From positions 319,760-383,759 of the forward strand of contig JADKIX010000011.1 of the NCBI GenBank assembly GCA_016722635.1: 64,000 bases of DNA. The letters run 5' to 3'. A program made the position numbers and the translations under genes. The notes beneath the pieces were generated by a model. That model was not told the origin of the DNA. It worked only from the letters and a program-made list of their open reading frames with translations, and searched no databases. Below are positions 9,133-56,837 of this stretch, one piece after another. Numbering within the stretch: position 1 is the first letter of the stretch; every line of letters starts with the position of its first letter. Source of the stretch: Rhodospirillaceae bacterium. Lineage in GTDB: Bacteria; Pseudomonadota; Alphaproteobacteria; JAEUKQ01.

Positions 9133-9718
9133 ATGTTGACCACCCCTTCTGTTCCGAAAAAGCTTTGCTTAAACACCTCTTTTTCATACCGTGTCTGCAC
9201 GAAACTTTTGCTGATTTCCTTCGCCGGTTTTATCCTGGCCAATTGTTCTGCTGGGGATCCCAATGATCCTGGTATCCAAGGGGCGACGGGGGCTGAGCAG
9301 CGGCGCATCCGCAACGGCGGCAATCAAACGGTTTGGGGCGATGGCGGCTTGAACTTATTTGGCAAAAACAATAAGGGGCCGGTCGTGGTTGAAGGGGTTG
9401 GGGTCAACAGCTTTCCTGTGGCGCGCCTCCCTGGATGCTATTTCCTTTATGCCGCTGGTTTCTGCTGATCCTTTTGGCGGTGTCATCATTACCGATTGGT
9501 ATAGCAGTCCGGAACTCCCAAATGAGCGGTTTAAGGTGAATGTACGGATTTTAACCCGTGATCTGCGGGCAGATGGGATTAGCATTTCCTTATTCCGCCA
9601 AACCCGGACAAATGCCAATGCCGCATGGGCAGATGCCATTACCAGCAAAAAGGCTATCCGCGATTTAGAAGATGCGGTTTTGGCCCGCGCCCGCGAATTA
9701 CGAATCGGCGCCCGTTAA
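9133..9718 (+). pseudogene. alphaproteobacterial lipoprotein (DUF3576-like), split by a +1 frameshift at the TTT run 9412-9414
   Basis: ORF 9133-9468 carries a signal peptide/lipobox and ORF 9359-9718 carries the conserved domain (AFLWRASLD...GGVIITDWY); removing one T gives a continuous ...GVNSFLWRASLD... Confidence 0.6.
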
Positions 9719-16748: not shown

Positions 16749-18615
16749 TTATGCCGTTTGCTGAACGGGCTTTTTATAGGCATATTTCAATAAAATCGTT
16801 AAAGCAGCTGGGGTGATGCCCGGAATACGGGAGGCGGCCCCAACACTATACGGCTTGGCTTGATTAAGCTTTTTTTGCAGCTCGGCCGACAAACCAGGAA
16901 TACCTGAAAAATCCAATAATGGTGGCAAAAAAAGTTCTTCATCTTGACGGAATAACCGGATATCGGTTTCATGCCTTTTCATATAACCAGAATATTTGGC
17001 TTCAATTTCCAATTGCTCTACAATAGCGTTCGGAACCCCCACTAGATTTGGAAAAATTTTGCATAATTGCTGCCAATCTACTAGTGATGCAGCCAACACA
17101 TCCAACACCGATCGTTTAACCCCGTCCGCATTGACGCCCACACCCAAGCGTTGCCATTCTGTCGGGGTGGCCGACATTTTTTCAAGTGTTTGCTGCGTGG
17201 TTTGTAATTGTTCCATTTTGGTTATGTAATGCTGCTGACGAAGCGCACCCACACACCCTATTTTGATCCCACGCCCAGTTAAACGGCGATCGGCATTATC
17301 ACTGCGCAAATGTAGGCGATATTCTGCCCGTGAGGTAAACATGCGGTAGGGTTCATTTGTTCCCAAAGTAACCAGATCATCGATCATAACCCCGATATAG
17401 GATTCACTGCGGTCAAAAAATCTCGGGTGCCTTTCCACTGGCCTTATAAGCGGCATTCAATCCTGCTACAATCCCTTGCGCTGCAGCCTCTTCATACCCC
17501 GTAGTTCCGTTGATTTGGCCTGCCAAAAACAGGCGGGGCATTTTTTTTGCCTCAAGCCAAGGATATAATTCCTTTGGGTCTACAAAATCATATTCAATGG
17601 CATATCCTGGCCTGATCACTTTCGCATTGGCTAAACCCGGGATGGTTTTCAAAAGTGCTAGCTGCACATCTTCCGGCAGGGACGTGGAAATGCCGTTGGG
17701 ATAAACGGTATCGTCATCCAAACCTTCCGGTTCTAAAAATATCTGGTGCCGGGAACGGTCTGCAAAACGCACGACCTTGTCTTCAATAGAGGGGCAGTAA
17801 CGCGGCCCAATGCCTTCAATTTGGCCAGAATACATGGGGGAGCGATGCAAATTGGTCCGAATAATCGCATGAGTCGCCTCATTCGTGGCGGTTAAATAAC
17901 AAGGGATTTGTGGGGTTGTAATAGCCGTGGTTAGATAGGAAAAAGCCGGGATGGGAAAATCGCCGGGCTGCTTCTCCAAGCCTGACCAATCAATGGTCCG
18001 CCCATCTAGTCTGGGAGGAGTGCCTGTTTTCAAGCGCCGCAATTGAAACCCGATTCGCTCGAGTGAATTTGAAAGCCCTAAAGACGGTTTTTCTCCTACC
18101 CGGCCAGCTGGAACCTTTTTCTCGCCAATATGGATAAGGCCGCGTAAAAACGTACCGGTGGTAATCACCACAGCGCCCGCATAAAGGTTCTTTCCCTCAG
18201 CTGTCTGCACGCCGATGATTTCGTGGCTCTTCTCATCAACCAAAAGATTTTCAACGGATGCCTGGTAAATCTCCAGGTTTACCTGTTCCGCCAAGGCCGC
18301 TTGCATGGCAGCCCGGTATAATTTACGGTCGGCTTGCGCCCGCAACCCTCGCACCGCATGCCCTTTACTGGCGTTTAACATACGGAATTGGATACCTGCT
18401 TTGTCAGCTACCCGTCCCATCAACCCATCTAGCGCATCAATTTCCCTGACCAAATGTCCCTTGCCCAATCCACCAATGGCTGGGTTGCAGGACATCTCCC
18501 CAATCGTTGCCTGTTGGTGGGTCACCAGCAATGTCTTGGCCCCTAAACGAGCCGCCGCCGCCGCCGCTTCACAGCCAGCATGGCCACCCCCAATGACGAT
18601 CACATCTACTTTCAT
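16749..18615 (-). pseudogene. mnmG: tRNA uridine-5-carboxymethylaminomethyl synthesis enzyme MnmG (GidA), split by a +1 frameshift in the A6 run 17415-17420 (may be a sequencing artefact)
   Basis: ORF 17413-18615 is the N-terminal 400 aa ([13 protein letters not shown] motif) and ORF 16749-17456 is the C-terminal 235 aa (YRMFTSRAEYRL); deleting one A joins ...KAPEIF to DRSESYIGV... Confidence 0.85.
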
Positions 18616-37500: not shown

Positions 37501-37539
37501 CGCAATGATATCCTCCTGGGTTAACGAAATTTTACGGTC

Positions 37540-38061
37540 TTACATCCGTTGCAGCAAATTTATTTTGCCGACCAACCGGTGTTTGACGAAAGCAAGCAGA
37601 TGAAGGCCGACCAGGCCTATGAAGCAAAAGGCCAGCAAAGCATGGGCATTGCCAAGCTGCTTTATGGTGGTGGTGACAGCTGGAAAGGGAAGGGGAAAAT
37701 TAAACCATTGCGGGGAAGCTCCATCCCCTACAAGGGCCAAATATCCAGATATTGGTACAATAATCATAAAAATATAGAAAAGAATGTGAACTGCAAGCGA
37801 CAGGTATTTTTCCCCATTGCTAAAGCTTGCAACCGGTGCAGGTCTTGCAAAAGACCAGCGAACAAGGAGGCGCAGCCAAATTAATGCAAAAATACTAATG
37901 CCAAAAGACTGGTGCCAGAAAATAATTGGGTATCCTGCAACCACTAGTTTTTCTTCCAGCATAAAACCTGTACCGATCATGGCGACAACCAAAATAGCCA
38001 TAAACCAATGTATTAGGCGTAATAAAGGATGATAGCGAAGAACAGATGACGACATGATCAT
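37540..38061 (-). CDS. cytochrome b561 family membrane protein
   Basis: 4 TM helices with conserved His residues (PF01292-like). Confidence 0.65.
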   Translation of the reverse strand: MIMSSSVLRYHPLLRLIHWFMAILVVAMIGTGFMLEEKLVVAGYPIIFWHQSFGISIFALIWLRLLVRWSFARPAPVASFSNGEKYLSLAVHILFYIFMIIVPISGYLALVGDGASPQWFNFPLPFPAVTTTIKQLGNAHALLAFCFIGLVGLHLLAFVKHRLVGKINLLQRM

Positions 38062-42597: not shown

Positions 42598-43338
42598 TTA
42601 TGCTGCCAAAGTTGCCAAAAGTTGTTTTTGTTGTTCCACTAAAGAGCGGGTTGCCTTCTGGGCCAAATCAAGCATTTGGATCAGTTGTGGTTGGGTAAAC
42701 GAATTTTTCTCGGCTGTAGATTGGATTTCAATGATATCCCCCTTACCATTCAACACAAAATTCGAATCAACTTCGGCATTGCTGTCTTCCATATATTCTA
42801 AATCCAGAATGGGTGTATTCCGGTAAATACCACAGGAGATGGCTGCAACATAATCTTGCAAAGGGAATTGCTTGATCACACCAGTTTTGACCAAACGGGC
42901 TAAAGCCTGATGTAAGGCAACATAACCGCCAGTAATAGCTGCCGTACGGGTGCCCCCATCCGCTTGAATAACATCACAGTCAATAAAAATTTGCCGTTCG
43001 CCCAAGGCAACCAAATTGGTAACAGCCCGTAGAGATCGGCCAATCAGCCGTTGAATTTCCTGCGTGCGTCCGGTTAATTTACCACGGCTGGCTTCCCGTT
43101 CGCTGCGCGTCGCAGTTGCCCGCGGTAACATACCATACTCCCCTGTTACCCAACCCTTGCCGGTATTCCGCAAAAAACCTGGCAATTGGTTGTCGACAGA
43201 AGCAGTACAGAGAAGATGCGTATTGCCCAATTGGATAAAACAAGATCCTTCTGCATATTTATTGACGCCCATTTCCATTTTAACGACGCGCATTTGATCG
43301 GGTTGGCGGCCAGAGGGACGAAGGGGGGTATTAACCAT
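42598..43338 (-). CDS. rph: ribonuclease PH
   Basis: RNase PH domain, RPSGRQPDQMR N-terminus, GGTRTA motif. Confidence 0.92.
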   Translation of the reverse strand: MVNTPLRPSGRQPDQMRVVKMEMGVNKYAEGSCFIQLGNTHLLCTASVDNQLPGFLRNTGKGWVTGEYGMLPRATATRSEREASRGKLTGRTQEIQRLIGRSLRAVTNLVALGERQIFIDCDVIQADGGTRTAAITGGYVALHQALARLVKTGVIKQFPLQDYVAAISCGIYRNTPILDLEYMEDSNAEVDSNFVLNGKGDIIEIQSTAEKNSFTQPQLIQMLDLAQKATRSLVEQQKQLLATLAA

Positions 43339-43518
43339 TATAAATAACTTTCATTGCTTAAAATGCCTGAATATTATCACTTTATTCATAAACGATATGA
43401 AAATAAAATGATAGAGAAGTGTTGAGAAGTTGCGAAATAATTCCTATTTACTAGAAACGCATAAGCAAATTAATTTTGATTGGGACTATCCTCAAGAAGG
43501 GTTGATACAGTTGAAACG

Positions 43519-44580
43519 ATGGTGATAAAAAGCAAAGCCAGTATCCAAGAGCTTAGCCTGAGGTCACGGGAAATTTTCCGTCATATTGTGGATACGTACC
43601 TTGAAACGGGCGAACCGATCGGCTCAAAGGTTATTTCGAAGCGGGCGAACCTGAATTTGTCACCGGCTACTATCCGAAATGTGATGGCAGATTTAGAGGA
43701 AGCTGGGTTACTTTTTGCCCCCCATATTTCTGCGGGTCGTATGCCTACGGAATTAGGGTTACGATTATTTGTCGATGGGTTACTCGAAATTGGGTATTTG
43801 GGGGAAGATGAACGACGCAATATGGAGGAAAAATGCCAAGTGGGGGGTCATCATTTCCCTGTTATGCTCGAACAAGCCATCCAAGCCTTGTCAGGACTTT
43901 CCCGTTGCGCCGGATTGGTTGTGGCACCCACCACCGAATATAGGTTGAAGCACATGGAATTCCTAAAGCTTGGGCCTGATCGTGCCTTGGTGGTCATGGT
44001 ATCGGAGGACGGGCTAATCGAGAACCGCCTGATTGATTTACCTAAAGGATTACCGCCAGCTGCACTGGTGGAAGCGGGAAATTATTTGACTGCGCGATTG
44101 ATTAATAAAACGTTGGCTGAAGCAACGGTTGAAATTACCAAAGAATTGGATGATCATCGGACGGAATTGAATTTATTGACAGAAAAGGTTATCAAAACGG
44201 GGTTAGCTACCTGGGCAGGGACAAAAAATGAGCGTATCCTTATTTTGACCGGGCAAAGCCATTTACTAGAGGAAGTGAAAGAATTAGAAGATTTGGAACG
44301 GGTCCGCATTTTATTTCAAATGCTTGAGAATAAAGAATCAATGATTCGTTTGCTCGAAGAATCAAAAAAGGCTAAAGATGTCCAGATTTTTATAGGCTCT
44401 CAAAATGAATTATTTAATTTGACCGGTTGTTCTTTAATTATCGCCCCTTACCAGAATAACCGGCAACAGGTGATCGGGGCGGTAGGTGTGATTGGCCCTA
44501 GCCGGATAGATTATGCAAAGATTATCCCTATGGTCAATTACACAGCCCAACTGATTGGGCGGTTTTTAACCAAAAAATAA
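43519..44580 (+). CDS. hrcA: heat-inducible transcription repressor HrcA; ORF open from 43480
   Basis: N-terminal wHTH (LSLRSREIFRHIV...GEPIGSK); conserved hrcA-grpE pairing. Confidence 0.88.
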   Translation: MVIKSKASIQELSLRSREIFRHIVDTYLETGEPIGSKVISKRANLNLSPATIRNVMADLEEAGLLFAPHISAGRMPTELGLRLFVDGLLEIGYLGEDERRNMEEKCQVGGHHFPVMLEQAIQALSGLSRCAGLVVAPTTEYRLKHMEFLKLGPDRALVVMVSEDGLIENRLIDLPKGLPPAALVEAGNYLTARLINKTLAEATVEITKELDDHRTELNLLTEKVIKTGLATWAGTKNERILILTGQSHLLEEVKELEDLERVRILFQMLENKESMIRLLEESKKAKDVQIFIGSQNELFNLTGCSLIIAPYQNNRQQVIGAVGVIGPSRIDYAKIIPMVNYTAQLIGRFLTKK

Positions 44581-44610
44581 GATATTTTTTATGATGCGAA
44601 GGTAGAAAAA

Positions 44611-45268
44611 ATGACAAAGCCTCAACATACAAAATCTTCCGATCAGCAGATGTCAAAGCCTGCCGAGGAAGTGGAACAACCTCTTCCTGATTCACACCAT
44701 AAGAGTGAACAGGCAACATCCGTAGCTGCAGACGAATCAGTCTCTAAAGCAGCGGAAAAAATAGGTATTTTTGGAGCAAAAATTATCTGAAGCAGGTCAA
44801 GAGATTGGCCAATTAAAAGACCAGTTATTACGGACATTGGCGGAAAGCGATAATATCCGCAAAAGGATGCAGCGCGAAAAAGAGGATAGCCAAAAATTTG
44901 CGGTCAGCAATTTTGCAAAGGATTTGATTGCGGTTTATGATAATTTGGAAAGGGCCCTTAAAAACCCCATTGCCACGGAAGATCCATTGATCAAGAATTT
45001 CATTGAAGGGGTGACCATGACGGAGCGCCAATTGGCGGCAGTTTTTGAAAAACACCAGTTGAAACGAATTGTACCAATAGGTGAAAAATTTGACGGCAAT
45101 CAGCATCAATCCGTGATGGAAGTGCCGTCATCTACCCAACCTCCCGGAACGGTAGCAGATGTTTTCCAGGCGGGGTTTTCCCTTCATGATCGCTTGTTAC
45201 GACCAGCAATTGTTACCGTGGTCAAAGCTGCTTCAAAAGAGGAGGAGGCAGCTCGTAAAAACCAATAA
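44611..45268 (+). CDS. grpE: nucleotide exchange factor GrpE; the N-terminal 53 codons lie in a different frame from the core ORF (44771-45268), with a +1 frameshift in the T5 run 44768-44772
   Basis: core GrpE ORF LEQKLSEAGQEIGQLKDQLLR...; upstream -1-frame ORF from an ATG (44611) with an RBS encodes an acidic Ser/Glu-rich GrpE-like N-terminus; removing one T joins them. Confidence 0.75.
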
Positions 45269-45302
45269 GCAAAGATTGCCAAATAATTTTTGTTGCAGAT
45301 AA

Positions 45303-45333
45303 CTTGTAGATTGGCGTAATCATTCTTATATCT
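45303..45333 (+). promoter_or_regulatory. possible sigma-32 (RpoH)-type heat-shock promoter upstream of dnaK
   Basis: CTTGTAG - 15 nt - CTTATATCT resembles CTTGAAA-N13-15-CCCCATNT. Confidence 0.25.
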
Positions 45334-45448
45334 CAACATGTTCACCAATATCTAGTAACTATTTAACCATTTATAAATTTATGGGGATTGCCACGAATGC
45401 TTCAGATGTTAAAGGTTGTGGCTGTAATCTGCCGAGAAGAGAGGAATC

Positions 45449-47368
45449 ATGAGTAAAGTTATCGGAATTGATTTAGGAACCACCAATTCCTGCGTTGCTA
45501 TTATGGAAGGCAAAGACACGAAAGTTATTGAAAATGCCGAGGGGTTACGGACAACCCCCTCAATTGTTGCTTTTACCGATACAGATGAACGGTTGGTTGG
45601 CCAGGCCGCGAAGCGGCAAGCGGTAACCAATCCGGAAAATACATTATTTGCGATTAAGCGGCTTATTGGCCGGCGTTATGATGACGCGATGGTTAAAAAA
45701 GATAAGGGATTAGTTCCTTACAAAATTATTGCTGGGGATAATGGGGATGCTTGGGTTGAAGCCCGTGGCAAAAAATATTCGCCTTCCCAAGTCAGTGCTT
45801 TCATTTTACAAAAAATGAAAGAAACCGCAGAAAATTATTTGGGTGAAAAAGTCACCCAAGCCGTGATTACGGTGCCTGCTTATTTCAATGATTCGCAACG
45901 CCAAGCTACCAAAGATGCTGGTCGGATTGCCGGTTTAGAGGTTTTGCGTATTATTAACGAACCCACTGCGGCAGCTTTAGCTTACGGGCTTGAGAAAAAA
46001 GGCAGCGGCATTATTGCTGTTTATGATTTGGGTGGTGGTACCTTTGATATTTCTGTACTTGAAATTGGTGATGGTGTATTCGAGGTCAAGTCAACCAATG
46101 GCGATACCTTCCTTGGGGGTGAAGACTTTGACAACCGCATTATGGATTATTTGGCCGAAGAATTCCGCAAAGAAAATGGGATTGACCTGCGCAAAGACAA
46201 GCTGGCTTTGCAGCGCCTGAAAGAGGCTTCTGAGAAAGCCAAGATTGAGCTTTCCAGTGCGATGCAAACGGAGGTCAATCTACCTTTCATTACGGCGGAC
46301 AAGAATGGGCCCAAGCATATGAATATCCGTTTAACAAGGGCAAAGCTTGAATCCTTGGTGGATGAATTTATCCAACGTACTCTGGAGCCTTGCCGGGCTG
46401 CTTTAAAAGATGCTGGTTTGAAAGCTTCCGAAATCAATGAGGTTGTTTTGGTCGGCGGTATGACGCGTATGCCTAAGGTGATTGAAACAGTCCGCAGCTT
46501 TTTTGGCCGTGAACCTCACCGAGGTGTTAACCCTGATGAAGTAGTGGCAGTTGGGGCTGCTATCCAGGGGGCGGTTTTGAAAGGTGAAGTGAAAGATGTC
46601 TTGTTACTCGATGTCACGCCCCTTTCTTTAGGGATTGAGACATTAGGTGGGGTTTTCACCCGGTTAATTGACCGCAATACCACTGTTCCTACCAAAAGAA
46701 GTCAGATTTTCTCAACGGCAGATGACAGCCAAACCGCTGTTACCATCCGCGTTTTCCAAGGGGAGCGCGAAATGGCGGCTGACAACAAGCTACTGGGCCA
46801 ATTTGATTTGTTAGGGCTGCCAGCGGCACCAAGGGGCGTTCCGCAGATTGAGGTAACATTCGATATTGATGCAAACGGCATTGTCAGCGTTTCTGCAAAA
46901 GATAAGGCAACCAATAAAGAGCAGCAAATCCGCATCCAGGCTTCCGGCGGGTTAAATGAGCAAGATATTAAGAAAATGGTTAAAGACGCCGAGGCTAATG
47001 CCAGTGAGGATAAGAAAAAACGGGCGTTAGTGGAAGCCCGCAACCAAGCCGAGTCACTGGTTCATGCCAATGAAAAAATGATCAAGGATAATGAGGGCAA
47101 AATCAGTGCAACCGATAAGGATTCCATCCAAAAAGCCATTGGTTCCTTAAAGGAAGTGTTGTCAGGGACGGATATCGAAGCGATTAAGTCCCGGTCCGAA
47201 TCGTTGGCGCAATTAGCGATGAAAATGGGGGAAGCAATGTATCGCTCCCAGCAGCAAACATCCGCACCTCAAGGCGACAATCAAGGTGAAGGCAAGACAG
47301 AAAATGAAGAAAAAGTTGTTGATGCTGATTTTCAAGAAGTCAACAATAACAAACGTAAAAAACCATAG
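45449..47368 (+). CDS. dnaK: molecular chaperone DnaK (Hsp70)
   Basis: [10 protein letters not shown] and DLGGGTFD signatures; full length 639 aa. Confidence 0.97.
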
Positions 47369-47382
47369 AGATGTTTCTTCCG

Positions 47383-47414
47383 CCAGCCTTAAATCTTTTT
47401 AAGGCTGGTTTTGG
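47383..47414 (+). terminator. rho-independent terminator/attenuator between dnaK and dnaJ
   Basis: 8-bp stem ccagcctt / aaggctgg, 10-nt loop, followed by ttttgg. Confidence 0.55.
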
Positions 47415-47429
47415 ATTTTAGGGTAGAAA

Positions 47430-48587
47430 ATGGCCGCAGCTAAACAAGATTATTATGAAATGCTTGGGGTATCCAAAACGGCAAGCGGCGAGGATTTGAA
47501 AAAAGCTTACCGTGCGTTGGCGATGAAACACCATCCGGATCGCAATCCGGGTAATCAGGCATCAGAACAAAAATTTAAAGAAATCAACGAAGCCTACGAT
47601 GTTCTAAAAGATGAGCAGAAAAGGGCAGCCTATGACCAATTTGGTCATGCGGCCTTCCAAAGTGGGGGGGGGCGTTCAGGGCGGCCTAACGGGCAGGGGG
47701 CAGAGGGATTTGGTTTTGCCGGGGGTGGTTTTGCCGATATTTTTAATGAAATGTTTGGTGATTTTACGGATTCGCGTACCGGTGGTCGCCAAGCCCGTGG
47801 TACGGATCTGCGCTATAATATGGAAATAAGCTTAGAGGAGGCTTTTTCGGGTAAGCAAGTGACGATCCGCGTGCCGGGGTCATCTGCTTGCGATGCTTGC
47901 CACGGTTCTGGCAGCGAGCAGGGTAGCCAGCCTATTAACTGCCCTACCTGTCGCGGTAGCGGCAAGCAACGGGCAGCCCAAGGGTTTTTTACCATTGAGC
48001 GTACCTGCCAACAATGTGCGGGCTTAGGAAAGATTATTGAAAAACCATGCCGGGTTTGCCGGGGCAGCGGTACCGTTAAACGTGAAAAAACCTTGGAAGT
48101 CAATATTCCCGCAGGGGTTGAAGACGGCTCCCGTATACGCTTATCAGGACAGGGGGAAGCTGGTATGCGCGGCTCACCTGCAGGGGATCTTTATATTTTT
48201 GTGAGTATCCGGCAACATCCGATTTTCCAGCGGGAGGGGGCAACCATTGAATGCCAGATTCCTATCCCGCTGGTAACAGCTGTTCTAGGTGGATCGGTAG
48301 ATGTGCCAACGGTTGAAGGAAATTGGGGTAAAGTCACCATTCCTGCGGGTACCCAAAGCGGACAAAAATTTCGTTTGAAAAGCAAAGGAATGAGTGTCTT
48401 GCGCTCCTCCAACCGTGGGGATATGTATTGTACCGTGGTGACTGAAACGCCCGTCAATCTCACCAAGCGCCAGCAAGAGCTTTTAAAAGAATTTACGGAA
48501 ATTTCTGAAGGTAATCCAAAAAACTATCCAATTATGGAAAAATTTTTAACCAAAGTGAAAGAATTTTGGAAAAATTTGCGACCGTAG
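47430..48587 (+). CDS. dnaJ: molecular chaperone DnaJ
   Basis: J-domain HPD, G/F region, four CxxCxGxG zinc-finger repeats. Confidence 0.95.
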
Positions 48588-48613
48588 CTTTTTCCCCCAC
48601 ATGATGTGAGCTG

Positions 48614-49273
48614 ATGACAATCCAGGCCAAGCGGTTATTAACAGCACTCGAAATAAAAGAAATTTTTAAAATATTTTCTGTGGCTAATCCGAAGCCGAAG
48701 GGGGAATTAATATATCAAAACCCCTACACCTTGCTGGTTGCAGTCGTTTTGTCTGCCCAATCAACCGATAAAGGCGTTAATAAGGCAACATCTGCTTTAT
48801 TTGCGGTCGCAAGCAGCCCCCAGGCCATGGTTGCATTAGGTGAGGAGAAACTACGGGAATATATCAAAACAATTGGCCTTTATAACAGTAAAGCTAAAAA
48901 CATCTTGTTGCTGAGCCAAAAATTGCTGACGGATTTTCAAGGGCAAGTGCCCGCAAACCGGCAACAGCTAGAGGAACTGCCAGGTGTTGGTCGGAAGACC
49001 GCTAATGTGGTTCTAAATATTGTTTTTGGCGAACCGACGATTGCTGTTGATACCCACGTTTTTCGGGTGGCCAATCGCACAGGACTGGCACTGGCAGCCA
49101 CGCCATCCTTGGTTGAAAAAATGCTTGGGGAAAGGGTTCCACACGCTTACCAACAATCTGCCCATCATTGGCTTATTTTACATGGGCGATATGTTTGTAA
49201 AGCCCGCAAGCCAGATTGTCAGCGTTGTTGTATTAAAGATATTTGCGAATATCCTGAAAAAACTGCTAGCTAA
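48614..49273 (+). CDS. nth: endonuclease III
   Basis: HhH-GPD motif plus C-terminal 4Fe-4S Cys cluster CKARKPDCQRCC...C. Confidence 0.9.
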   Translation: MTIQAKRLLTALEIKEIFKIFSVANPKPKGELIYQNPYTLLVAVVLSAQSTDKGVNKATSALFAVASSPQAMVALGEEKLREYIKTIGLYNSKAKNILLLSQKLLTDFQGQVPANRQQLEELPGVGRKTANVVLNIVFGEPTIAVDTHVFRVANRTGLALAATPSLVEKMLGERVPHAYQQSAHHWLILHGRYVCKARKPDCQRCCIKDICEYPEKTAS

Positions 49274-49314
49274 TCCCGTTCGGCGGATTCTAAAAGACAT
49301 TGTTTCTTAGTTTC

Positions 49315-49692
49315 TTAAATTTTTACTAAGTGCGATAAGCATAAATCCGTGTCTGTTGCAATACCTGCGCGAGAACGGGCGATCACATGAGTGGCCCGCA
49401 AAGACTGTTGATGGGCGCGGGAGTAAAAAAATATGTCAACCACACAATCTGCTTGCTGGAATTGCCATAATTCAGCTGGGGGATCGGACCTTTTTAAAAC
49501 GGGGCTGCCGAATAACGCCATAATCTCCTGTGGCGATTTATTAATGATAGCAGCAGAAGTAACTAAAGCTCGGTTGGGCAAGGAGCTATCTAGGTTTTTG
49601 CTCCCTGACTGACAGGCAGAAACGGACAACCAGCTAGCTAACAGAAAAACTGCCCGCAACCAGTTTGGAAATAGGGGACAACCAGCGATCAT
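49315..49692 (-). CDS. hypothetical small lipoprotein
   Basis: signal peptide with lipobox LSVSAC; 125 aa; no confidently recognised domain. Confidence 0.4.
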   Translation of the reverse strand: MIAGCPLFPNWLRAVFLLASWLSVSACQSGSKNLDSSLPNRALVTSAAIINKSPQEIMALFGSPVLKRSDPPAELWQFQQADCVVDIFFYSRAHQQSLRATHVIARSRAGIATDTDLCLSHLVKI

Positions 49693-49707
49693 TACCAGTT
49701 GCTTAAA

Positions 49708-50382
49708 CTATTGGCCAGACGGTGTTTCATCAATTTGATAAGTTGGTTGGGTATTAGTTGAGCTAACCGAAACATGCTCATACCCATGATGCGGGTTATC
49801 ATGTAAATCAGAAAGAAGCTCAAGCTGGCCAGATAATGCCCCTCCTTTTTCTACCTCTAGCTGGGCATAGCGGATGGAACCCACAACTTTGCCAGTGGAA
49901 CGCACAGTTAAACGGCCGTGGACAGTAATGTCACCTTCAAACCGCCCACTAATGTCAGCTGTTTCGATGTGGGCCGAACCTTTGAAAACCCCAAATTCAG
50001 AAATTTCAATACTGCGGCTATCGGTTAAGGAAGCTTCCACGCGACCTTCCACGATCAACCTTTGGCAAGCCCGGATTTCCCCAGTCAAAACGATATCGCG
50101 ACCGACGATTAAGCGTTTGCCCTCCGAGTCGGAATTCGTTTTTGCTTCATTACGGCGCACGGAGATAGAGGAAGATATATTTTCGGTATGGATGCCGGAA
50201 GCAGGCCTTGCCATCGGGGCAACAGGACGGTTATTCAAGGGGGTAGCATTTGGCTCGCTACGGTGCACCGGGCGATTACTGGTCAGCACGGAGGGTTCTG
50301 GTGAATTTTCCCGTGATGGGGAAGAAGAAACTGTTTCTTTTAAGGGCATTTCACGCTCTTTCTTTTTTCCGAACATGGCCAA
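49708..50382 (-). CDS. bactofilin-family cytoskeletal protein with a disordered N-terminal region
   Basis: beta-helical bactofilin repeat pattern (IVLTGEIRACQRLIVEGRVEASL...ISGRFEGDITVHGRLTV); Ser/Pro-rich N-terminus. Confidence 0.7.
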   Translation of the reverse strand: MAMFGKKKEREMPLKETVSSSPSRENSPEPSVLTSNRPVHRSEPNATPLNNRPVAPMARPASGIHTENISSSISVRRNEAKTNSDSEGKRLIVGRDIVLTGEIRACQRLIVEGRVEASLTDSRSIEISEFGVFKGSAHIETADISGRFEGDITVHGRLTVRSTGKVVGSIRYAQLEVEKGGALSGQLELLSDLHDNPHHGYEHVSVSSTNTQPTYQIDETPSGQ

Positions 50383-50543
50383 ATCCTTATACTGTACCTG
50401 AAAATAAATATATGTATTATTCTCTACATACCATAATTATATAAATTGCAACAGAAGTTTTTTAAAGAAAACAGCAGCGCCATAGCCTTTCTTCGAATCA
50501 TCGCTTTTCAGCCTTGTGTTCAGGCACTGTGTGTAGCAACCCG

Positions 50544-50993
50544 TCATGATCTTCTATAACTGATCATGGCAACCCCTATCATCGATAAAATAATACCGGC
50601 GATATTAATCAGGTTTAGCTGTTCCTTAAGAACCAGCAAGCCAACCGCCATTAATATGATATTGATCACCACCCCGGTTACAACATTTCCCACACTTAAA
50701 TCCCAGCCCTGGCGATACATCAGTAAAAATCCCAATTCCATCAAAATAACAGCCCCGGCAATTCCTAACTGAACCCAGCCTAACTGTTTCATATGGGTGA
50801 CAAGCCCTCCTTGGATGGGGAAAAGCAATAAAATGGGGATACAAATCGCGAGTACAGCCATATAAATAGCTGTAATCGAGACAAGCGGGTTAATGGTTGG
50901 CGATATTTTTTTAACCAAGAAATGATATCCAACCGTGCCAAAAATGGCTACGGCAGCTGATAAATAATATAAAATGCTACCTTTTTCTGACAT
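50544..50993 (-). CDS. small DMT/EamA-like integral membrane protein; start at MSEKGS
   Basis: about 149 aa with 4-5 predicted TM helices; weak EamA-like pattern. Confidence 0.4.
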   Translation of the reverse strand: MSEKGSILYYLSAAVAIFGTVGYHFLVKKISPTINPLVSITAIYMAVLAICIPILLLFPIQGGLVTHMKQLGWVQLGIAGAVILMELGFLLMYRQGWDLSVGNVVTGVVINIILMAVGLLVLKEQLNLINIAGIILSMIGVAMISYRRS

Positions 50994-51169
50994 GGGTAAT
51001 ATCCTTAAAAGCAGAATAAGCATGAGATAATAGGGAGAATGAATGGCATGACAGCATAGCCAAAATCAATCAACCTAAAAAGGTCTTTTTTGCATCGGTC
51101 ACGAAAATAACTTGTACAAGTTTATAATTGATGGCAGAACAAGGGAAGTTTAAGGGGATGGATGAAATG

Positions 51170-52162
51170 GCTAACCACCAATATGATGTTGTGGCGATTG
51201 GCAATGCTATCGTTGATATTTTGGCGCATGTTGAAAGTGTTTTTCTGGATAAAGCGGGACTTAAAAAAGGGGCAATGACCCTGATTAATGAAGCCCAATC
51301 GGATAAATTATATGAATTGATGGGCCCAGCCACCGAAGTTTCCGGCGGTTCTGCCGCCAATACGGCAGCGGGTTTAGCATCGCTTGGGGTTCGGACTGCT
51401 TTCATTGGCAAGGTACGCAATGACCAGCTTGGCAATATTTTTCGCCATGATATTCAAGCCGCTGGCGTTCATTTCGATAGTCAAGCGTTGGTCAAGGGGC
51501 CATCAACAGCCAGATGTATGGTTTTTGTGACCCCCGATTCCCACCGTACGTTGCAAACTTATTTGGGGGCCTGCGTAACCCTTTCAACTAAAGATGTGCC
51601 GAAAACTTTAATTGAATCTGCGGCGATCACCTATCTCGAGGGATATTTATGGGATTCCCCTTCGGCCGCTGCCGCCTGCGAGCAGGCTATTGATTATGCC
51701 AAGAAGAAAGGTAAAAAAGTTTCCATCAGCCTTTCCGACCCTTATTGCGTTGATAGGCACCGGCAAAAATTCCAAAAATTGTGCGAGGTTACGGATATCC
51801 TTTTTGCCAATGATGCCGAGATCATGGCTTTATGGCAAACAGATCAGTTGGCGTCTGCGGTTGAGCAAACCAGGCAACAGGTGCCTTTGGCAGCTGTTAC
51901 CCAAGGGGCTGCAGGTTCTTTGATCATTACCAAGCAAGAAACCATCCTTGTTAAAGCTGTCCCTGTTCGGGATATTGTTGACACCACCGGTGCAGGTGAC
52001 TTATATGCAGCAGGATTTTTATATGGTTTTGTTCGAGGATATCCATTAAAAGATTGTGGGGCAATTGCATCCCTTGCCGCCGCAGAAATTATCAGCCATT
52101 TGGGTGCTAGGCCAGCTGTTTCTCTATCAAAGCTTTTAGAAGGTTCGCGTATTATTTTATAA
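51170..52162 (+). CDS. PfkB-family carbohydrate/nucleoside kinase, probably adenosine kinase; ORF open from 51128
   Basis: PfkB N-terminal GNAIVD and C-terminal DTTGAGD motifs. Confidence 0.75.
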   Translation, partial: ANHQYDVVAIGNAIVDILAHVESVFLDKAGLKKGAMTLINEAQSDKLYELMGPATEVSGGSAANTAAGLASLGVRTAFIGKVRNDQLGNIFRHDIQAAGVHFDSQALVKGPSTARCMVFVTPDSHRTLQTYLGACVTLSTKDVPKTLIESAAITYLEGYLWDSPSAAAACEQAIDYAKKKGKKVSISLSDPYCVDRHRQKFQKLCEVTDILFANDAEIMALWQTDQLASAVEQTRQQVPLAAVTQGAAGSLIITKQETILVKAVPVRDIVDTTGAGDLYAAGFLYGFVRGYPLKDCGAIASLAAAEIISHLGARPAVSLSKLLEGSRIIL

Positions 52163-52180
52163 CTAACGATTGGAAAGTGT

Positions 52181-54001
52181 ATGTTACTCAGAAATTTAGC
52201 AATTATTGCCCACGTCGATCACGGTAAGACAACCTTAGTTGATCAGTTGTTACGCCAAAGCGGAACATTTCGCGCCAACCAGCAAATGGTGGAAAGGGTG
52301 ATGGATTCGAATGAGCTTGAAAAGGAACGCGGTATCACTATTTTGGCCAAATGCACGTCGGTTACGTGGAAAGGCATTAAGCTGAATATTGTGGATACGC
52401 CGGGGCACGCCGATTTCGGCGGAGAAGTTGAGCGTATTTTAAACATGGTGGATGGGGTCGTGGTGTTGGTGGATGCAGCTGAAGGGCCTATGCCGCAAAC
52501 CAAATTTGTGACCATGAAAGCTTTAAAACAAGGGTTGAAGCCGATTGTGGTCATTAACAAGGTGGATCGTCCTGATGCCCGAGCCCAAGAGGTACAAAAT
52601 CTGGTTTTTGATTTGTTTGCCTTATTGGGTGCTACCGATGAGCAACTTGATTTTCCAACCCTTTTCGCATCTTCCAAGCAGGGATGGGCCGCACATTCCT
52701 TAGATGCCCCCCGCCTAAATCTAGAGCCGCTTTTTGATTTGATTGTCAAACACGTGGCGCCGCCGACATGCAACCCCGATGAAAAATTCGCTATGCTTGC
52801 TACCATTATCGAATCAGATCCCTATTTGGGGCGTATTTTAACAGGGCGTATCAATACGGGAAAAGCAAAAGTCAATATGCCAGTCAAGGCACTAAGCCCC
52901 GATGGAAAGGTCATCGAACAAGGACGTCTAACCAAATTATTGGCTTTCCGCGGTGTGGAACGGATCCCAGTTGAGCAAGCAGTTGCAGGTGATATTATAG
53001 CCATTGCGGGGTTAGGGGCACCCACCGTGGCCGATACCATTTGCGATCCCGCTGTCATGACCCCCATTCCAGCCCAACCCATTGATCCGCCAACCCTGTC
53101 CATTAATATCAGCGTGAATGATTCACCCCTAGCTGGACGGGAAGGTAATAAAGTTACCAGCCGAGAAATTCGCGCCAGGCTTTGGAAGGAAGGCGAGGGG
53201 AACGTCGCCATTCGCGTCAAGGAATCGGATCAGAAGGATTCGTTTGAGGTTTCTGGACGGGGTGAATTGCAATTGGGTGTGTTGATTGAAACCATGCGGC
53301 GGGAAGGCTTTGAATTGTCCATCAGCCGACCGAAGGTGATTTATCAGCAAGATCCCGTAACTTCACAACGCTTGGAACCGTTCGAGGAGGTATTGGTTGA
53401 CGTGGACGAAGAGTATGCGGGCGTTGTGGTTGAAAAAATTGGCATGCGTCGGGGGGAAATGTCTGACATGCAGCCATCCGGCAGCGGCAAAACCCGTGTC
53501 ACTTTCATTGTGCCGTCTCGCGGATTGATCGGTTATCATGGCGAATTTATGACGGATACCCGGGGTACAGGTGTTATGAACAGGTTGTTCCACGGTTATG
53601 CGCCTTATAAAGGAGCCATTGGCGGCCGACGTAATGGCGTATTGATTTCTACTTCCAACGGTAAAGCTGTAACCTATGCTTTATGGTATTTGGAAGAACG
53701 GGGTATTTTGATGGTTCCCCCCGGCGTTGATGTGTATGAAGGGATGATCCTCGGCGAGCATTCGCGTGAGAATGATTTGGACGTGAATCCGATTAAGGAA
53801 AAGCATCTCAGCAACGTTCGGACAACGGCGAAAGAAGAGGCTATCCGCCTGACTCCACCGCTGATCATGACGTTAGAAAAAGCGATGTCTTATATCCAAG
53901 AAGATGAATTGGTTGAAGTCACGCCCAAGAACATCCGCCTACGCAAGAAATACTTAAACCCTAATGAGCGCAAGAGATTCAACAAACAAAATTCGGATTA
54001 A
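52181..54001 (+). CDS. typA: translational GTPase TypA/BipA
   Basis: G1 AHVDHGKTTL, EF-G-like domains, 606 aa. Confidence 0.95.
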   Translation: MLLRNLAIIAHVDHGKTTLVDQLLRQSGTFRANQQMVERVMDSNELEKERGITILAKCTSVTWKGIKLNIVDTPGHADFGGEVERILNMVDGVVVLVDAAEGPMPQTKFVTMKALKQGLKPIVVINKVDRPDARAQEVQNLVFDLFALLGATDEQLDFPTLFASSKQGWAAHSLDAPRLNLEPLFDLIVKHVAPPTCNPDEKFAMLATIIESDPYLGRILTGRINTGKAKVNMPVKALSPDGKVIEQGRLTKLLAFRGVERIPVEQAVAGDIIAIAGLGAPTVADTICDPAVMTPIPAQPIDPPTLSINISVNDSPLAGREGNKVTSREIRARLWKEGEGNVAIRVKESDQKDSFEVSGRGELQLGVLIETMRREGFELSISRPKVIYQQDPVTSQRLEPFEEVLVDVDEEYAGVVVEKIGMRRGEMSDMQPSGSGKTRVTFIVPSRGLIGYHGEFMTDTRGTGVMNRLFHGYAPYKGAIGGRRNGVLISTSNGKAVTYALWYLEERGILMVPPGVDVYEGMILGEHSRENDLDVNPIKEKHLSNVRTTAKEEAIRLTPPLIMTLEKAMSYIQEDELVEVTPKNIRLRKKYLNPNERKRFNKQNSD

Positions 54002-55379
54002 TAGCATATTGGGACAAAACCAACATTTAGGTTCACCTAAAAAATCTTGGTGGTTGAGAGCGGTCGGTCTGTATACAGACCGCCGCAGTTTTGCCTTGTT
54101 ATTGCTGGGGATATCTGCAGGCATGCCGTATTTCCTGTTGCATGGATCCTTAACCGCTTGGTTGCGTGAGGGTGGCGTGGATCGAGCAATGATAGGCTAT
54201 ATCAGTTGGGTTGGAGTTTTCTACGGGGTGAAAGTTTTATGGGCCCCCTTGGTAGATCAAATAAAAATCCCCCTTCTTACCCGGTTCTTGGGAAAGCGGC
54301 GCGGCTGGATTTTGCTGTCCCAGATAGGGATTGTCAGTGGATTATTATTGATGGTTTGGGGAGCACCTGTTTTTCCTGACCCTATACTTGATCAGCCTAA
54401 AGGCCTTGGAAATTTAACATATCTTGGGAATATGGGGATGTTTATCCTGGCGATTTTGTGGGTGGCCTTTTGGTCGGCAACCCAGGATATTGCCATTGAT
54501 GCCTACCGGATCGAGGTGGCTGGGGAAGAGTTCCAAGGAGCTATGGTTTCCAATTACATTTTGGGCTATCGCATCGCCGGATCTTTGGTGGTAGGGGTGG
54601 GGGCTTTTTATTTGGCGGATTTATTGTCGTGGCCAGATGCCTATTTATTGATGGCTGCTTGTTTCCTGCCACTTATCCTGGTGGTTTTGCTGTCTCATGA
54701 ACCTCAAGCTTACTCAACATCTCCTGCAAGGGGGTTTCTTGCACACATCCAACAAGCTGTTTTAAGGCCCTTTATTGAGTTTTTTCAACGCCAATCTTGG
54801 AGTAGCGCTCTTGTTATTTTGGGGTTTATCGCTCTTTGCAAAGTCAGTGATATTGTCATGGGGCCAATGGTCAACCCTCTTTACAAAGATTTGGGGTTTA
54901 CGAATATCGAAATTGCCAATATTACCAAGGTTTATGGATTTGCGATCACTATATTAGGGGGGTTCATAGCAGGAATTTTAGTTGCCCGCTATTCTGCTAA
55001 GAGGTTGTTGTTGCCTGCTATCATTTTACTAGCTGTGCCTAACCTGATGTTTATGGTGCTGGCAGACCATCCAAAAGATATCCTATTATTGGCTTCAGCC
55101 ATCAGTGCCGATAATTTTGGCAATGGCTTGGCGGCTACAATTTTAGTTGCTTATTTCTCGGGCTTGGCCAATAAGGCCTATACGGCTACGCAATATGCTT
55201 TATTCAGTTCTTTAATGAACTTACCAGGCACCATCTTGGGCGGATTTTCAGGCTGGATAACCGAGCAGGTTGGCTATAGCAATTTCTTTTTGATCAGTGC
55301 GTGCTTGGCATTGCCAGCTCTTTCCTTGGCCTTTATCCTGCAATGGCGCCCAGGGGTTAAATCGCAGGGGAAGACCTAA
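53964..55379 (+). CDS. ampG: muropeptide MFS permease AmpG; start uncertain, the called ATG overlaps typA by 38 nt
   Basis: MFS 12-14 TM topology; AmpG-like N-terminal LLLLGISAG... Confidence 0.75.
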   Translation: MSARDSTNKIRINSILGQNQHLGSPKKSWWLRAVGLYTDRRSFALLLLGISAGMPYFLLHGSLTAWLREGGVDRAMIGYISWVGVFYGVKVLWAPLVDQIKIPLLTRFLGKRRGWILLSQIGIVSGLLLMVWGAPVFPDPILDQPKGLGNLTYLGNMGMFILAILWVAFWSATQDIAIDAYRIEVAGEEFQGAMVSNYILGYRIAGSLVVGVGAFYLADLLSWPDAYLLMAACFLPLILVVLLSHEPQAYSTSPARGFLAHIQQAVLRPFIEFFQRQSWSSALVILGFIALCKVSDIVMGPMVNPLYKDLGFTNIEIANITKVYGFAITILGGFIAGILVARYSAKRLLLPAIILLAVPNLMFMVLADHPKDILLLASAISADNFGNGLAATILVAYFSGLANKAYTATQYALFSSLMNLPGTILGGFSGWITEQVGYSNFFLISACLALPALSLAFILQWRPGVKSQGKT

Positions 55380-56064
55380 GTTTATCAACCATATACCCAA
55401 CGGATCGGACGGTACGGATTATATCGGGGTCGTTGGGCTTCTTAGGATTATATAGGGCCTGCCGCAAGCGCCCGATGTGGACATCAACTGTTCGAAGATC
55501 AATATAGTGACCTTGGCCCCACACTGCATCCAGCAATTGTTCCCTGGTTAACGGACGGCCTTGGTTTAGCAGCAAATGCCTTAATAGTTTAAATTCTGTT
55601 GGGCTTAATAAAATCAACTCTTGTTCCTGATAAACTTGGTGATGGTCAAGATCAACGGTTAAATTGGCATAAAGCAATTGGCTGTTTGAGGTTAACTGCA
55701 AACTACGCCGCAGCAGGCTTTTCACCCGGGCCAGCAATTCCTTGGTGCTGAACGGTTTGGTCATATAATCATCAGCGCCTGTTTCCAGCCCGCGCAGCTT
55801 GTCATCTTCCTCCGTACGGGCTGTCAAAATAAGGATGGGCAATAAATAAAATTGTGGGGAACGTCTTAAGATCCGGCAAAGTTCTATGCCAGAAATTTTA
55901 GGCACCATCCAATCGGCAATCACCAAGTCGGGTTTCTGTTCCCGGATCAATGTTAAGGCAATCTCACCATCTTTAGCCAGGATCGCCTGGTAACCTGCAC
56001 ACTCTAAGTTATATTCCAGGATAGCCATCAGGGCTGGATCATCTTCAACAATCAAAATTGTCAT
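55357..56064 (-). CDS. phoB: phosphate regulon response regulator PhoB
   Basis: receiver (ILIVEDD...D...KPF) plus OmpR wHTH; operon position after phoU. Confidence 0.9.
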   Translation of the reverse strand: MTILIVEDDPALMAILEYNLECAGYQAILAKDGEIALTLIREQKPDLVIADWMVPKISGIELCRILRRSPQFYLLPILILTARTEEDDKLRGLETGADDYMTKPFSTKELLARVKSLLRRSLQLTSNSQLLYANLTVDLDHHQVYQEQELILLSPTEFKLLRHLLLNQGRPLTREQLLDAVWGQGHYIDLRTVDVHIGRLRQALYNPKKPNDPDIIRTVRSVGYMVDKLRSSPAI

Positions 56065-56078
56065 CGAAACAGGCTGGA

Positions 56079-56837
56079 CTATTTGGGCGATTCCTTCTTA
56101 GGAAGAGCAGATGGGGTGGGAGTTAGGTAAGAATTGGTAATCGTGTGATCGCTTTTGGGACGGTCCCCTTTAATTGGGGAGCCATGCACCATAAAATAAA
56201 TGGTTTCCGCAATATTGGTGGCGTGGTCGCCGATCCGCTCAATATTCTTGGCAATAAACAATAGATGGATACACCCACCGATGGTGCGTACATCTTCCAT
56301 CATATAGGTCAGAAGCTCCCGGAAGACGCTGGTATAAAGGGCGTCCACTTCTTCATCCTGCCGCCAGGCTTGCAGGGCTTGATCTATATTTTTATTGATA
56401 TAGGCATCCAACACATTTTTAACAATTTGTTGCACGGCTTTGCCCATCCGGGCAATACCTGTCATAAACTGTCCGTTCATCATGGTTTCGGGTAATGCTG
56501 GGACACGTTTGGCAACGTTGGCGGCATAATCGCCCATGCGCTCCAAATCACTGGAAATTCTTAAAGAGGAGACAACTTCTCGTAAATCTTGGGCCATCGG
56601 TTGCCTGAGTGCCAGGATTTTGACAACTAAATTACTGACCATTTGATCGCGCGAGTCAATTTTTTGGTCTTGCTCAACCACTTCTTTCGCTTGTTTCAAA
56701 TCATGGGACGCCAAGGCTTCGACCGCCTGTTGTAGTTGCGATTCGACCAAAGCACCCATTTCAACAAGGATATTGCCTAATTGTTTTAATTGGTCATCAA
56801 ATGATTTCACAATATGTTCGGGTAAATTTACCATCAT
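56079..56837 (-). CDS. phoU: phosphate signalling protein PhoU
   Basis: duplicated PhoU domain, about 250 aa; follows pstB. Confidence 0.9.
   Translation of the reverse strand: MMVNLPEHIVKSFDDQLKQLGNILVEMGALVESQLQQAVEALASHDLKQAKEVVEQDQKIDSRDQMVSNLVVKILALRQPMAQDLREVVSSLRISSDLERMGDYAANVAKRVPALPETMMNGQFMTGIARMGKAVQQIVKNVLDAYINKNIDQALQAWRQDEEVDALYTSVFRELLTYMMEDVRTIGGCIHLLFIAKNIERIGDHATNIAETIYFMVHGSPIKGDRPKSDHTITNSYLTPTPSALPKKESPK

Follow-up and report, generated by a model that had tools for sequence, protein, structure and literature searches.

Is the grpE gene of the window (the whole stretch of 64,000 nucleotides analyzed here) genuinely broken into two overlapping reading frames in the organism it comes from, or was the break introduced after the DNA had left the cell; which of its bases is the superfluous one; and does the same kind of lesion recur elsewhere in the window?

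The grpE locus

The elements of the locus on which these questions turn are the following.

43480–44580, plus strand: hrcA, the upstream neighbour (from the ORF list)
44599–44605, plus strand: Shine–Dalgarno-like AAGGTAG, 5 nt before the true grpE start codon, ATG 44611
44611–44790, plus strand: ORF1, the 5' part of grpE (acidic N-terminal tail), 59 aa followed by TGA
44771–45268, plus strand: ORF2, the 3' part of grpE with the entire folded GrpE, 165 aa, TTG start

The original prediction had described a GrpE core ORF with a TTG start and, upstream of it, an ATG with a Shine–Dalgarno sequence opening an acidic ORF in another frame, and all of these could be reproduced, including the coordinates and content of ORF2, the end of hrcA at 44580, the Shine–Dalgarno-like motif and the peptide quoted for ORF1. 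The frame of ORF2 is +1 relative to that of ORF1, which follows the correct frame until ~44766 and thereafter runs out of frame to its TGA; on the upstream side, the frame of ORF2 is blocked by a TAG at 44762–44764. A T5 run occupies 44768–44772, and the motif AGGT (44763–44766) is found 4 nt upstream of the TTG at 44771. In the public record, ORF1 is deposited as “hypothetical protein IPP67_09150” (MBL0339305.1), and ORF2 as a GrpE of 165 aa (MBL0339306.1).

ORF2 matches the Pfam GrpE family (PF01025) with 171.8 bits (gathering cut-off 25.8; E = 1.2e-50) over profile positions 17–165 of 165, and no match was returned for ORF1 by the Pfam search. Homology of ORF2 to solved GrpE structures, namely those of human GRPEL1 (9bls, 9qid), G. 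kaustophilus (4ani), E. coli (1dkg) and T. thermophilus (3a6m), extends across the helix, bundle and beta domains (E from 1e-30 to 2e-17), so that the entire folded part of the protein (long helix, four-helix bundle and beta domain) is within ORF2, the first residue of which is equivalent to the one at which the crystallized GrpE/GRPEL1 constructs begin.

The surroundings of the gene are likewise conventional. The order rph (on the minus strand), hrcA, grpE, dnaK, dnaJ is common to the window and its relatives (genes called in contigs L003, L010 and L014), the HrcA proteins of the relatives (353–354 aa, Pfam HrcA) are encoded at the equivalent position, and the AAGGTAG motif is kept in L001, L002 and L008. 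When set against an ordinary bacterial GrpE (PF01025, the nucleotide-exchange factor of DnaK, encoded within an hrcA-grpE-dnaK-dnaJ cluster), the window is the same in domain content and in gene order, with hrcA upstream and dnaK-dnaJ downstream, matches the length of 218 aa once a single base is removed, and has an acidic low-complexity N-terminal tail that is 95–100% identical to that of the relatives; it differs in that the gene, as deposited, consists of two overlapping ORFs through one extra base.

Intact grpE genes of the relatives

All of the close relatives (60–99.5% identity) have one uninterrupted GrpE of 218–224 aa. A search with the repaired protein returned P0001–P0004 at 95, 87, 74 and 60% identity, respectively (218–224 aa, 95–100% query coverage), and each of these is one polypeptide whose N-terminal tail corresponds to the peptide of ORF1, which means that the grpE of the window is frame-disrupted. 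Another intact GrpE, P0129, has the same residues 1–52 as ORF1 (up to ...AAEKIG) and stays in frame beyond them, and P0122 is identical to ORF2. The alignment to relatives that had been suggested along with the original prediction has therefore returned proteins of normal length (218 aa, in some cases 224 aa) with the upstream ORF as their conserved tail (95–100% identity to the first 52 residues of the intact 218-aa GrpE), rather than short GrpE proteins accompanied by an unconserved upstream ORF. The core of that prediction is confirmed: the observation is real and goes beyond coincidence, and ORF1 and ORF2 represent one gene, the N-terminus of which was put into a different frame by a single extra nucleotide.

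The relatives themselves come from activated-sludge and wastewater-type samples (e.g., MAG_MBR_AS.64). The frameshifted allele was seen neither in ~20 independent contigs nor among the 27 cluster members listed, where the truncated 165-aa copy is represented solely by the entry of the source metagenome-assembled genome (MAG) itself. A search of genome contigs for relatives returned one (L001), and exact-product look-ups in the contig index (ORF1, ORF2, DnaK and P0122) yielded no independent contig with the frameshift.

As a side observation, L001 and L007 (a lineage at 93% identity) carry, at the equivalent of window position ~44640, an 18-nt in-frame insertion resembling a duplication (GATCAGCCAAAATCTTCG), which adds KSSDQP to the low-complexity tail of what is a 224-aa GrpE and shows that the N-terminal tail tolerates changes in length.

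Position of the extra base and the allele junction

Removing any one base within 44763–44787 fuses ORF1 and ORF2 into a frame of 218 codons, and, as so many single-base deletions restore the frame, arithmetic alone cannot place the extra base. What does place it is a comparison with two intact alleles of equal length that co-circulate among the relatives. Allele X (ATAGGTTTTTTAGAG, IGFLE; codons GCA GCG GAA AAA ATA GGT TTT TTA GAG, peptide AAEKIGFLE) is carried by five independent contigs (L009–L013), and allele Y (ATGGTATTTTTGGAG, MVFLE; codons GAA GCG GAA CAA ATG GTA TTT TTG GAG, peptide EAEQMVFLE) by six (L002, L008 and L014–L017, at 97–99.5% nucleotide identity). The corresponding region of the window (ATAGGTATTTTTGGAG; codons GCA GCG GAA AAA ATA GGT ATT TTT GGA G) is X on its left and Y on its right, the two parts being out of register by one base where they meet.

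44762–44773, plus strand: junction TAGGTATTTTTG, composed of X-left (ATAGGT) and Y-right (GGTATTTTTGG)
44650–44766, plus strand: patch in the X state (44650 A, 44750 C, 44758 A, 44763 A), from the table of variable sites as differences from L008

The TAG at 44762–44764 arises from this X/Y junction itself, the hybrid 19-mer of the window being AAAATAGGTATTTTTGGAG. In the alignments, the extra base appears as a single gap, at A44763 when the window is compared with the Y allele and its contigs and at A44767 when it is compared with the X allele and its contigs; with either of the two removed, the overlapping ORFs become a single GrpE ORF. Outside of the X patch, the window has the Y/L008 state at every variable site of 44519–45445, and the right edge of the patch is the frameshift, located inside the GGT triplet that separates the two register differences. 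Over 13.4 kb, the window and L008 are 99.46% identical, with 72 mismatches and one gap, which is the grpE base; the same lone gap in grpE is seen against five further contigs with the Y allele from different samples.

No in-register single or double recombinant of X and Y matches the 49-nt string of the window, which is, however, exactly regenerated, with its one additional base, when an X/Y alignment with two compensating gap columns (the arrangement favoured by gap-tolerant scoring) is followed along X as far as the interval separating these columns and along Y thereafter. Both homologous recombination and mismatch repair depend on long flanks and work in register, for which reason neither should add a base.

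Differences between the window and the contigs of 99.5% identity cluster within stretches of ~20–170 bp, often at third codon positions (e.g., 45634–45679), as judged over 42806–56219 against L008 and over 44000–45700 against L002 and L009–L013. The same two haplotype states also occur in changing combinations across independent Illumina contigs, as would result either from a highly recombining natural population or from many of its assemblies being mosaics.

Other frame-broken genes in the window

Two more conserved genes of the window are interrupted by a +1 indel.

9133–9718, plus strand: gene of a DUF3576 lipoprotein, split by an extra base in AGCTTTCCTG (9411–9415)
16749–18615, minus strand: mnmG/gidA, divided into two ORFs, one of 400 aa with the GIDA domain and one of 235 aa with the C-terminal domains, as assigned by Pfam

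The DUF3576 protein is intact in the relatives (194 aa), one of which (P0274) is identical to the repaired protein of the window. Its alleles read AACAGCTTTCTG (allele a; L021 and L023) and AACAGTTTCCTG (allele b; L019, L020 and L022), and the window reads AACAGCTTTCCTG; at the break itself, pure alleles would read AGCTTTCTG and AGTTTCCTG, as opposed to AGCTTTCCTG in the window. The window is thus the left part of allele a joined out of register to the right part of allele b, which is the same type of signature as that of grpE, and the break (~9415) coincides with the change of the window from L021-like to L018-like sequence. An out-of-register union that in-register recombination of the alleles could not reach is, then, found at both grpE and DUF3576. 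In mnmG, the window has A6 at 17415–17420 and the sole comparator, L019, has A5; removal of one A gives an ORF of 621 aa, and the indel closes a divergent patch of 11 SNPs (17256–17412).

All three coding indels (grpE, DUF3576 and mnmG) are therefore at the edges of divergent SNP patches, and, with a chance of 0.02–0.05 per site for a random position to be such an edge, this placement is non-random. The other indels relative to near-identical contigs are all intergenic (8592, 8602, 8714, 9781 and 37539). The one at 37539/37540, a T2/T3 difference from L014, is one base past the stop of a cytochrome-b-like gene (37540–38061, minus strand) and is harmless.

Origin of the frameshift

The frameshift in grpE is probably an artefact of a consensus or polishing step applied to mixed strains, the real cells carrying either allele X or allele Y; most likely, it is not real biology, and the organism itself carries a conventional, unbroken grpE of 218 codons. 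Sequence reads from two or more co-existing strains would have been merged into one consensus, in the course of which X (…AAAATAGGTTTTTTAGAG…) and Y (…ACAAATGGTATTTTTGGAG…) may have been aligned gap-tolerantly with two compensating 1-nt gaps, one column holding an additional A after AAAT in X and the other an additional A following the GGT of Y. If the consensus, whether column-wise or built on a partial-order graph, followed the X reads up to “GGT” and the Y reads beyond it, both of the extra bases would have been retained, with a net gain of one and the creation of the TAG at 44762. On this reading, the hybrid would be a product of software rather than of a cell.

The source is an NCBI MAG named “Rhodospirillaceae bacterium” (locus tag IPP67_), and the length of the contig in question (447,538 bp) is suggestive of a long-read assembly. 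The accession and locus-tag style of this MAG are presumably those of the long-read activated-sludge MAG set, although a search of the supplement did not connect the locus tag IPP67 with that work. A plausible history is assembly of the MAG from long reads, with subsequent polishing by short reads of the mixed community. The published pipeline behind that set consisted of CANU, Racon and two rounds of Medaka, followed by Racon with Illumina reads, and its authors caution that the resulting MAGs are chimeric population bins subject to platform errors (PMC8012365). With the indel errors of long-read or hybrid-polished MAGs from strain-heterogeneous populations, the present case shares both the isolated 1-nt insertions breaking conserved genes and an origin in a MAG whose contig is very long; it differs in that two of the three insertions go beyond a simple miscount of a homopolymer, being out-of-register joins of equal-length alleles where the haplotype switches, and this signature is more specific than that of the usual homopolymer error.

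Some observations, however, count against a consensus artefact. The assembly is otherwise clean, with 1 indel in the 13.4 kb compared with L008 and 2 in the 20.6 kb compared with L014; the natural contigs of the population are themselves mosaic, which implies that real recombination is frequent here; and the mnmG lesion is a plain A5/A6 homopolymer difference from a single comparator. Furthermore, ORF2 has a usable start (AGGT-N4-TTG) and encodes the whole of the folded GrpE, which could make a frameshifted allele tolerable if it were real.

Alternative explanations

The last of these points leads to the explanation that survives next best, though it is still unlikely: that the frameshift is real, the grpE of the strain being a hybrid or an evolutionary intermediate of X and Y, with the core of the protein made from the TTG at 44771. 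Initiation at this codon could proceed via the AGGT at 44763–44766 or by termination–reinitiation from ORF1 (the stop of which is 17 nt downstream), and the disordered N-terminal tail would be either lost or made as a separate peptide of 59 aa. Apart from the Shine–Dalgarno-like AGGT 4 nt before the TTG, and a start of ORF2 at the same place as that of the crystallized GrpE/GRPEL1 constructs, which keeps the entire folded protein, a real allele would be in line with the very low number of other indels relative to the relatives of 99.5% identity and with the relationship between the two alleles, which can be read as IG recoded to MV by a compensated frameshift, with the window one indel away from each. 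The likeness to compensated frameshift evolution goes as far as X (ATA GGT TTT) and Y (ATG GTA TTT) being linked by a +1 and a −1 indel 4 nt apart, and the window being equal to the +1 intermediate, but X and Y are explained equally well by three substitutions. The more specific proposal, namely that the window has captured a natural allele that is a live compensated-frameshift intermediate between X (IGF) and Y (MVF), with the N-terminal tail dispensable here, is quite improbable. Cells would tolerate such an allele in that the internal TTG permits separate translation of the complete folded GrpE; if real, it would amount to a natural experiment on the dispensability of the GrpE N-terminal tail. 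What weighs against a real allele is its absence from the ~20 independent contigs and the 27 listed cluster members, the fact that in-register recombination of X and Y cannot reach it, and the two other conserved genes within the same 64 kb that have +1 indels at haplotype switch points (one of them with an identical “union” signature), as a repeated coincidence of +1 indels with haplotype switches would be unexpected for real mutations.

The original prediction had put the extra base into the T5 run at 44768–44772, i.e., a T4 to T5 insertion by homopolymer sequencing error or slippage, with ...AAEKIGILEQKL... as the resulting protein after correction. Its arithmetic is right, as deletion of one T does restore an ORF of 218 aa, and an Ile would be plausible at this position (the outgroup L003 has I-P-I-L-E here); the relatives, however, do not support the T run as the site of the extra base, and an insertion within it is very improbable. 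T5 is native to the intact Y allele and present in every intact contig with it, X reads GGT TTT TTA, and the flanks switch from X to Y exactly at the site of the T run. In the nucleotide alignment of intact relatives, T4 at the run was seen in none of them, neither as GGTATTTTGG nor in the form ATAGGTATTTTGGAG, and the T4-repaired protein (“...EKIGILEQ...”, with IGILE) is missing from a collection of 15 billion proteins, as is the protein obtained by deleting A44763. A run length differing from that of the relatives, which homopolymer slippage would produce, is found only at mnmG (A6 as opposed to A5).

Two other single-base repairs were considered and rejected. Removal of a base from the A5 run at 44778–44782 (leaving A4) would give IFGAKLSEA, which is absent from the relatives, and an insertion of A44763 alone into allele Y is insufficient to produce the window, which also has the X states at 44750 and 44758, A44763 being an X state as well.

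Programmed +1 frameshifting of the prfB type, in which tRNA-Phe would slip from UUU (44770–44772) to UUG with the aid of AGGU and full-length GrpE would be produced, has a next to negligible probability: a +1 shift would indeed be needed, and the Shine–Dalgarno-like AGGT is 3 nt before a U-rich codon (the same spacing from the Shine–Dalgarno sequence to the slip codon as in prfB), but the motif simply belongs to the coding sequence of allele X, re-pairing from UUU to UUG looks poor on inspection (a G:G wobble clash), and grpE is rejected as a member of this class because the frameshift is unconserved (every orthologue at 60–99.5% identity is a single ORF) and the A-site codon, GGA (AUU UUU GGA), is neither a stop nor a rare codon and, hence, not a slow one.

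Implications for the deposited genome

With the mixed-strain consensus as the preferred explanation, the GrpE of the organism is almost certainly normal, and the biological consequences of the split are small. The consequences for the public record are more tangible, as three probable errors can be flagged in a public MAG: grpE (MBL0339305.1 and the truncated MBL0339306.1), the DUF3576 gene at ~9415, and mnmG at 17415. The signature documented here, that is, a gain of one base at a haplotype switch where alleles of equal length align with compensating gaps, would be missed by ordinary homopolymer filters, and can lead to spurious short proteins and “hypothetical” ORFs in the databases.

Further observations in the window

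Although hrcA is present, no CIRCE operator (TTAGCACTC-N9-GAGTGCTAA, with at most 3 mismatches) was found in the whole 64 kb window; the target of HrcA, probably groESL, must be outside of it. Several neighbouring genes that might be taken for split ones, namely Tim44/MltA, UPF0102/RsmI, MnmE and a 124-aa ORF, ferrochelatase/UPF0093, C26 peptidase/EEP, and ParA/ParB, are, according to Pfam, complete genes in their own right. At 50544–51435 (minus strand), there are two adjacent ORFs, one of 159 aa with a borderline EamA match and the other of 121 aa with no Pfam match; since EamA transporters usually have ~300 aa, this pair might be a fourth split gene, and the equivalent region of L014 is occupied by a scaffold gap (a run of N).
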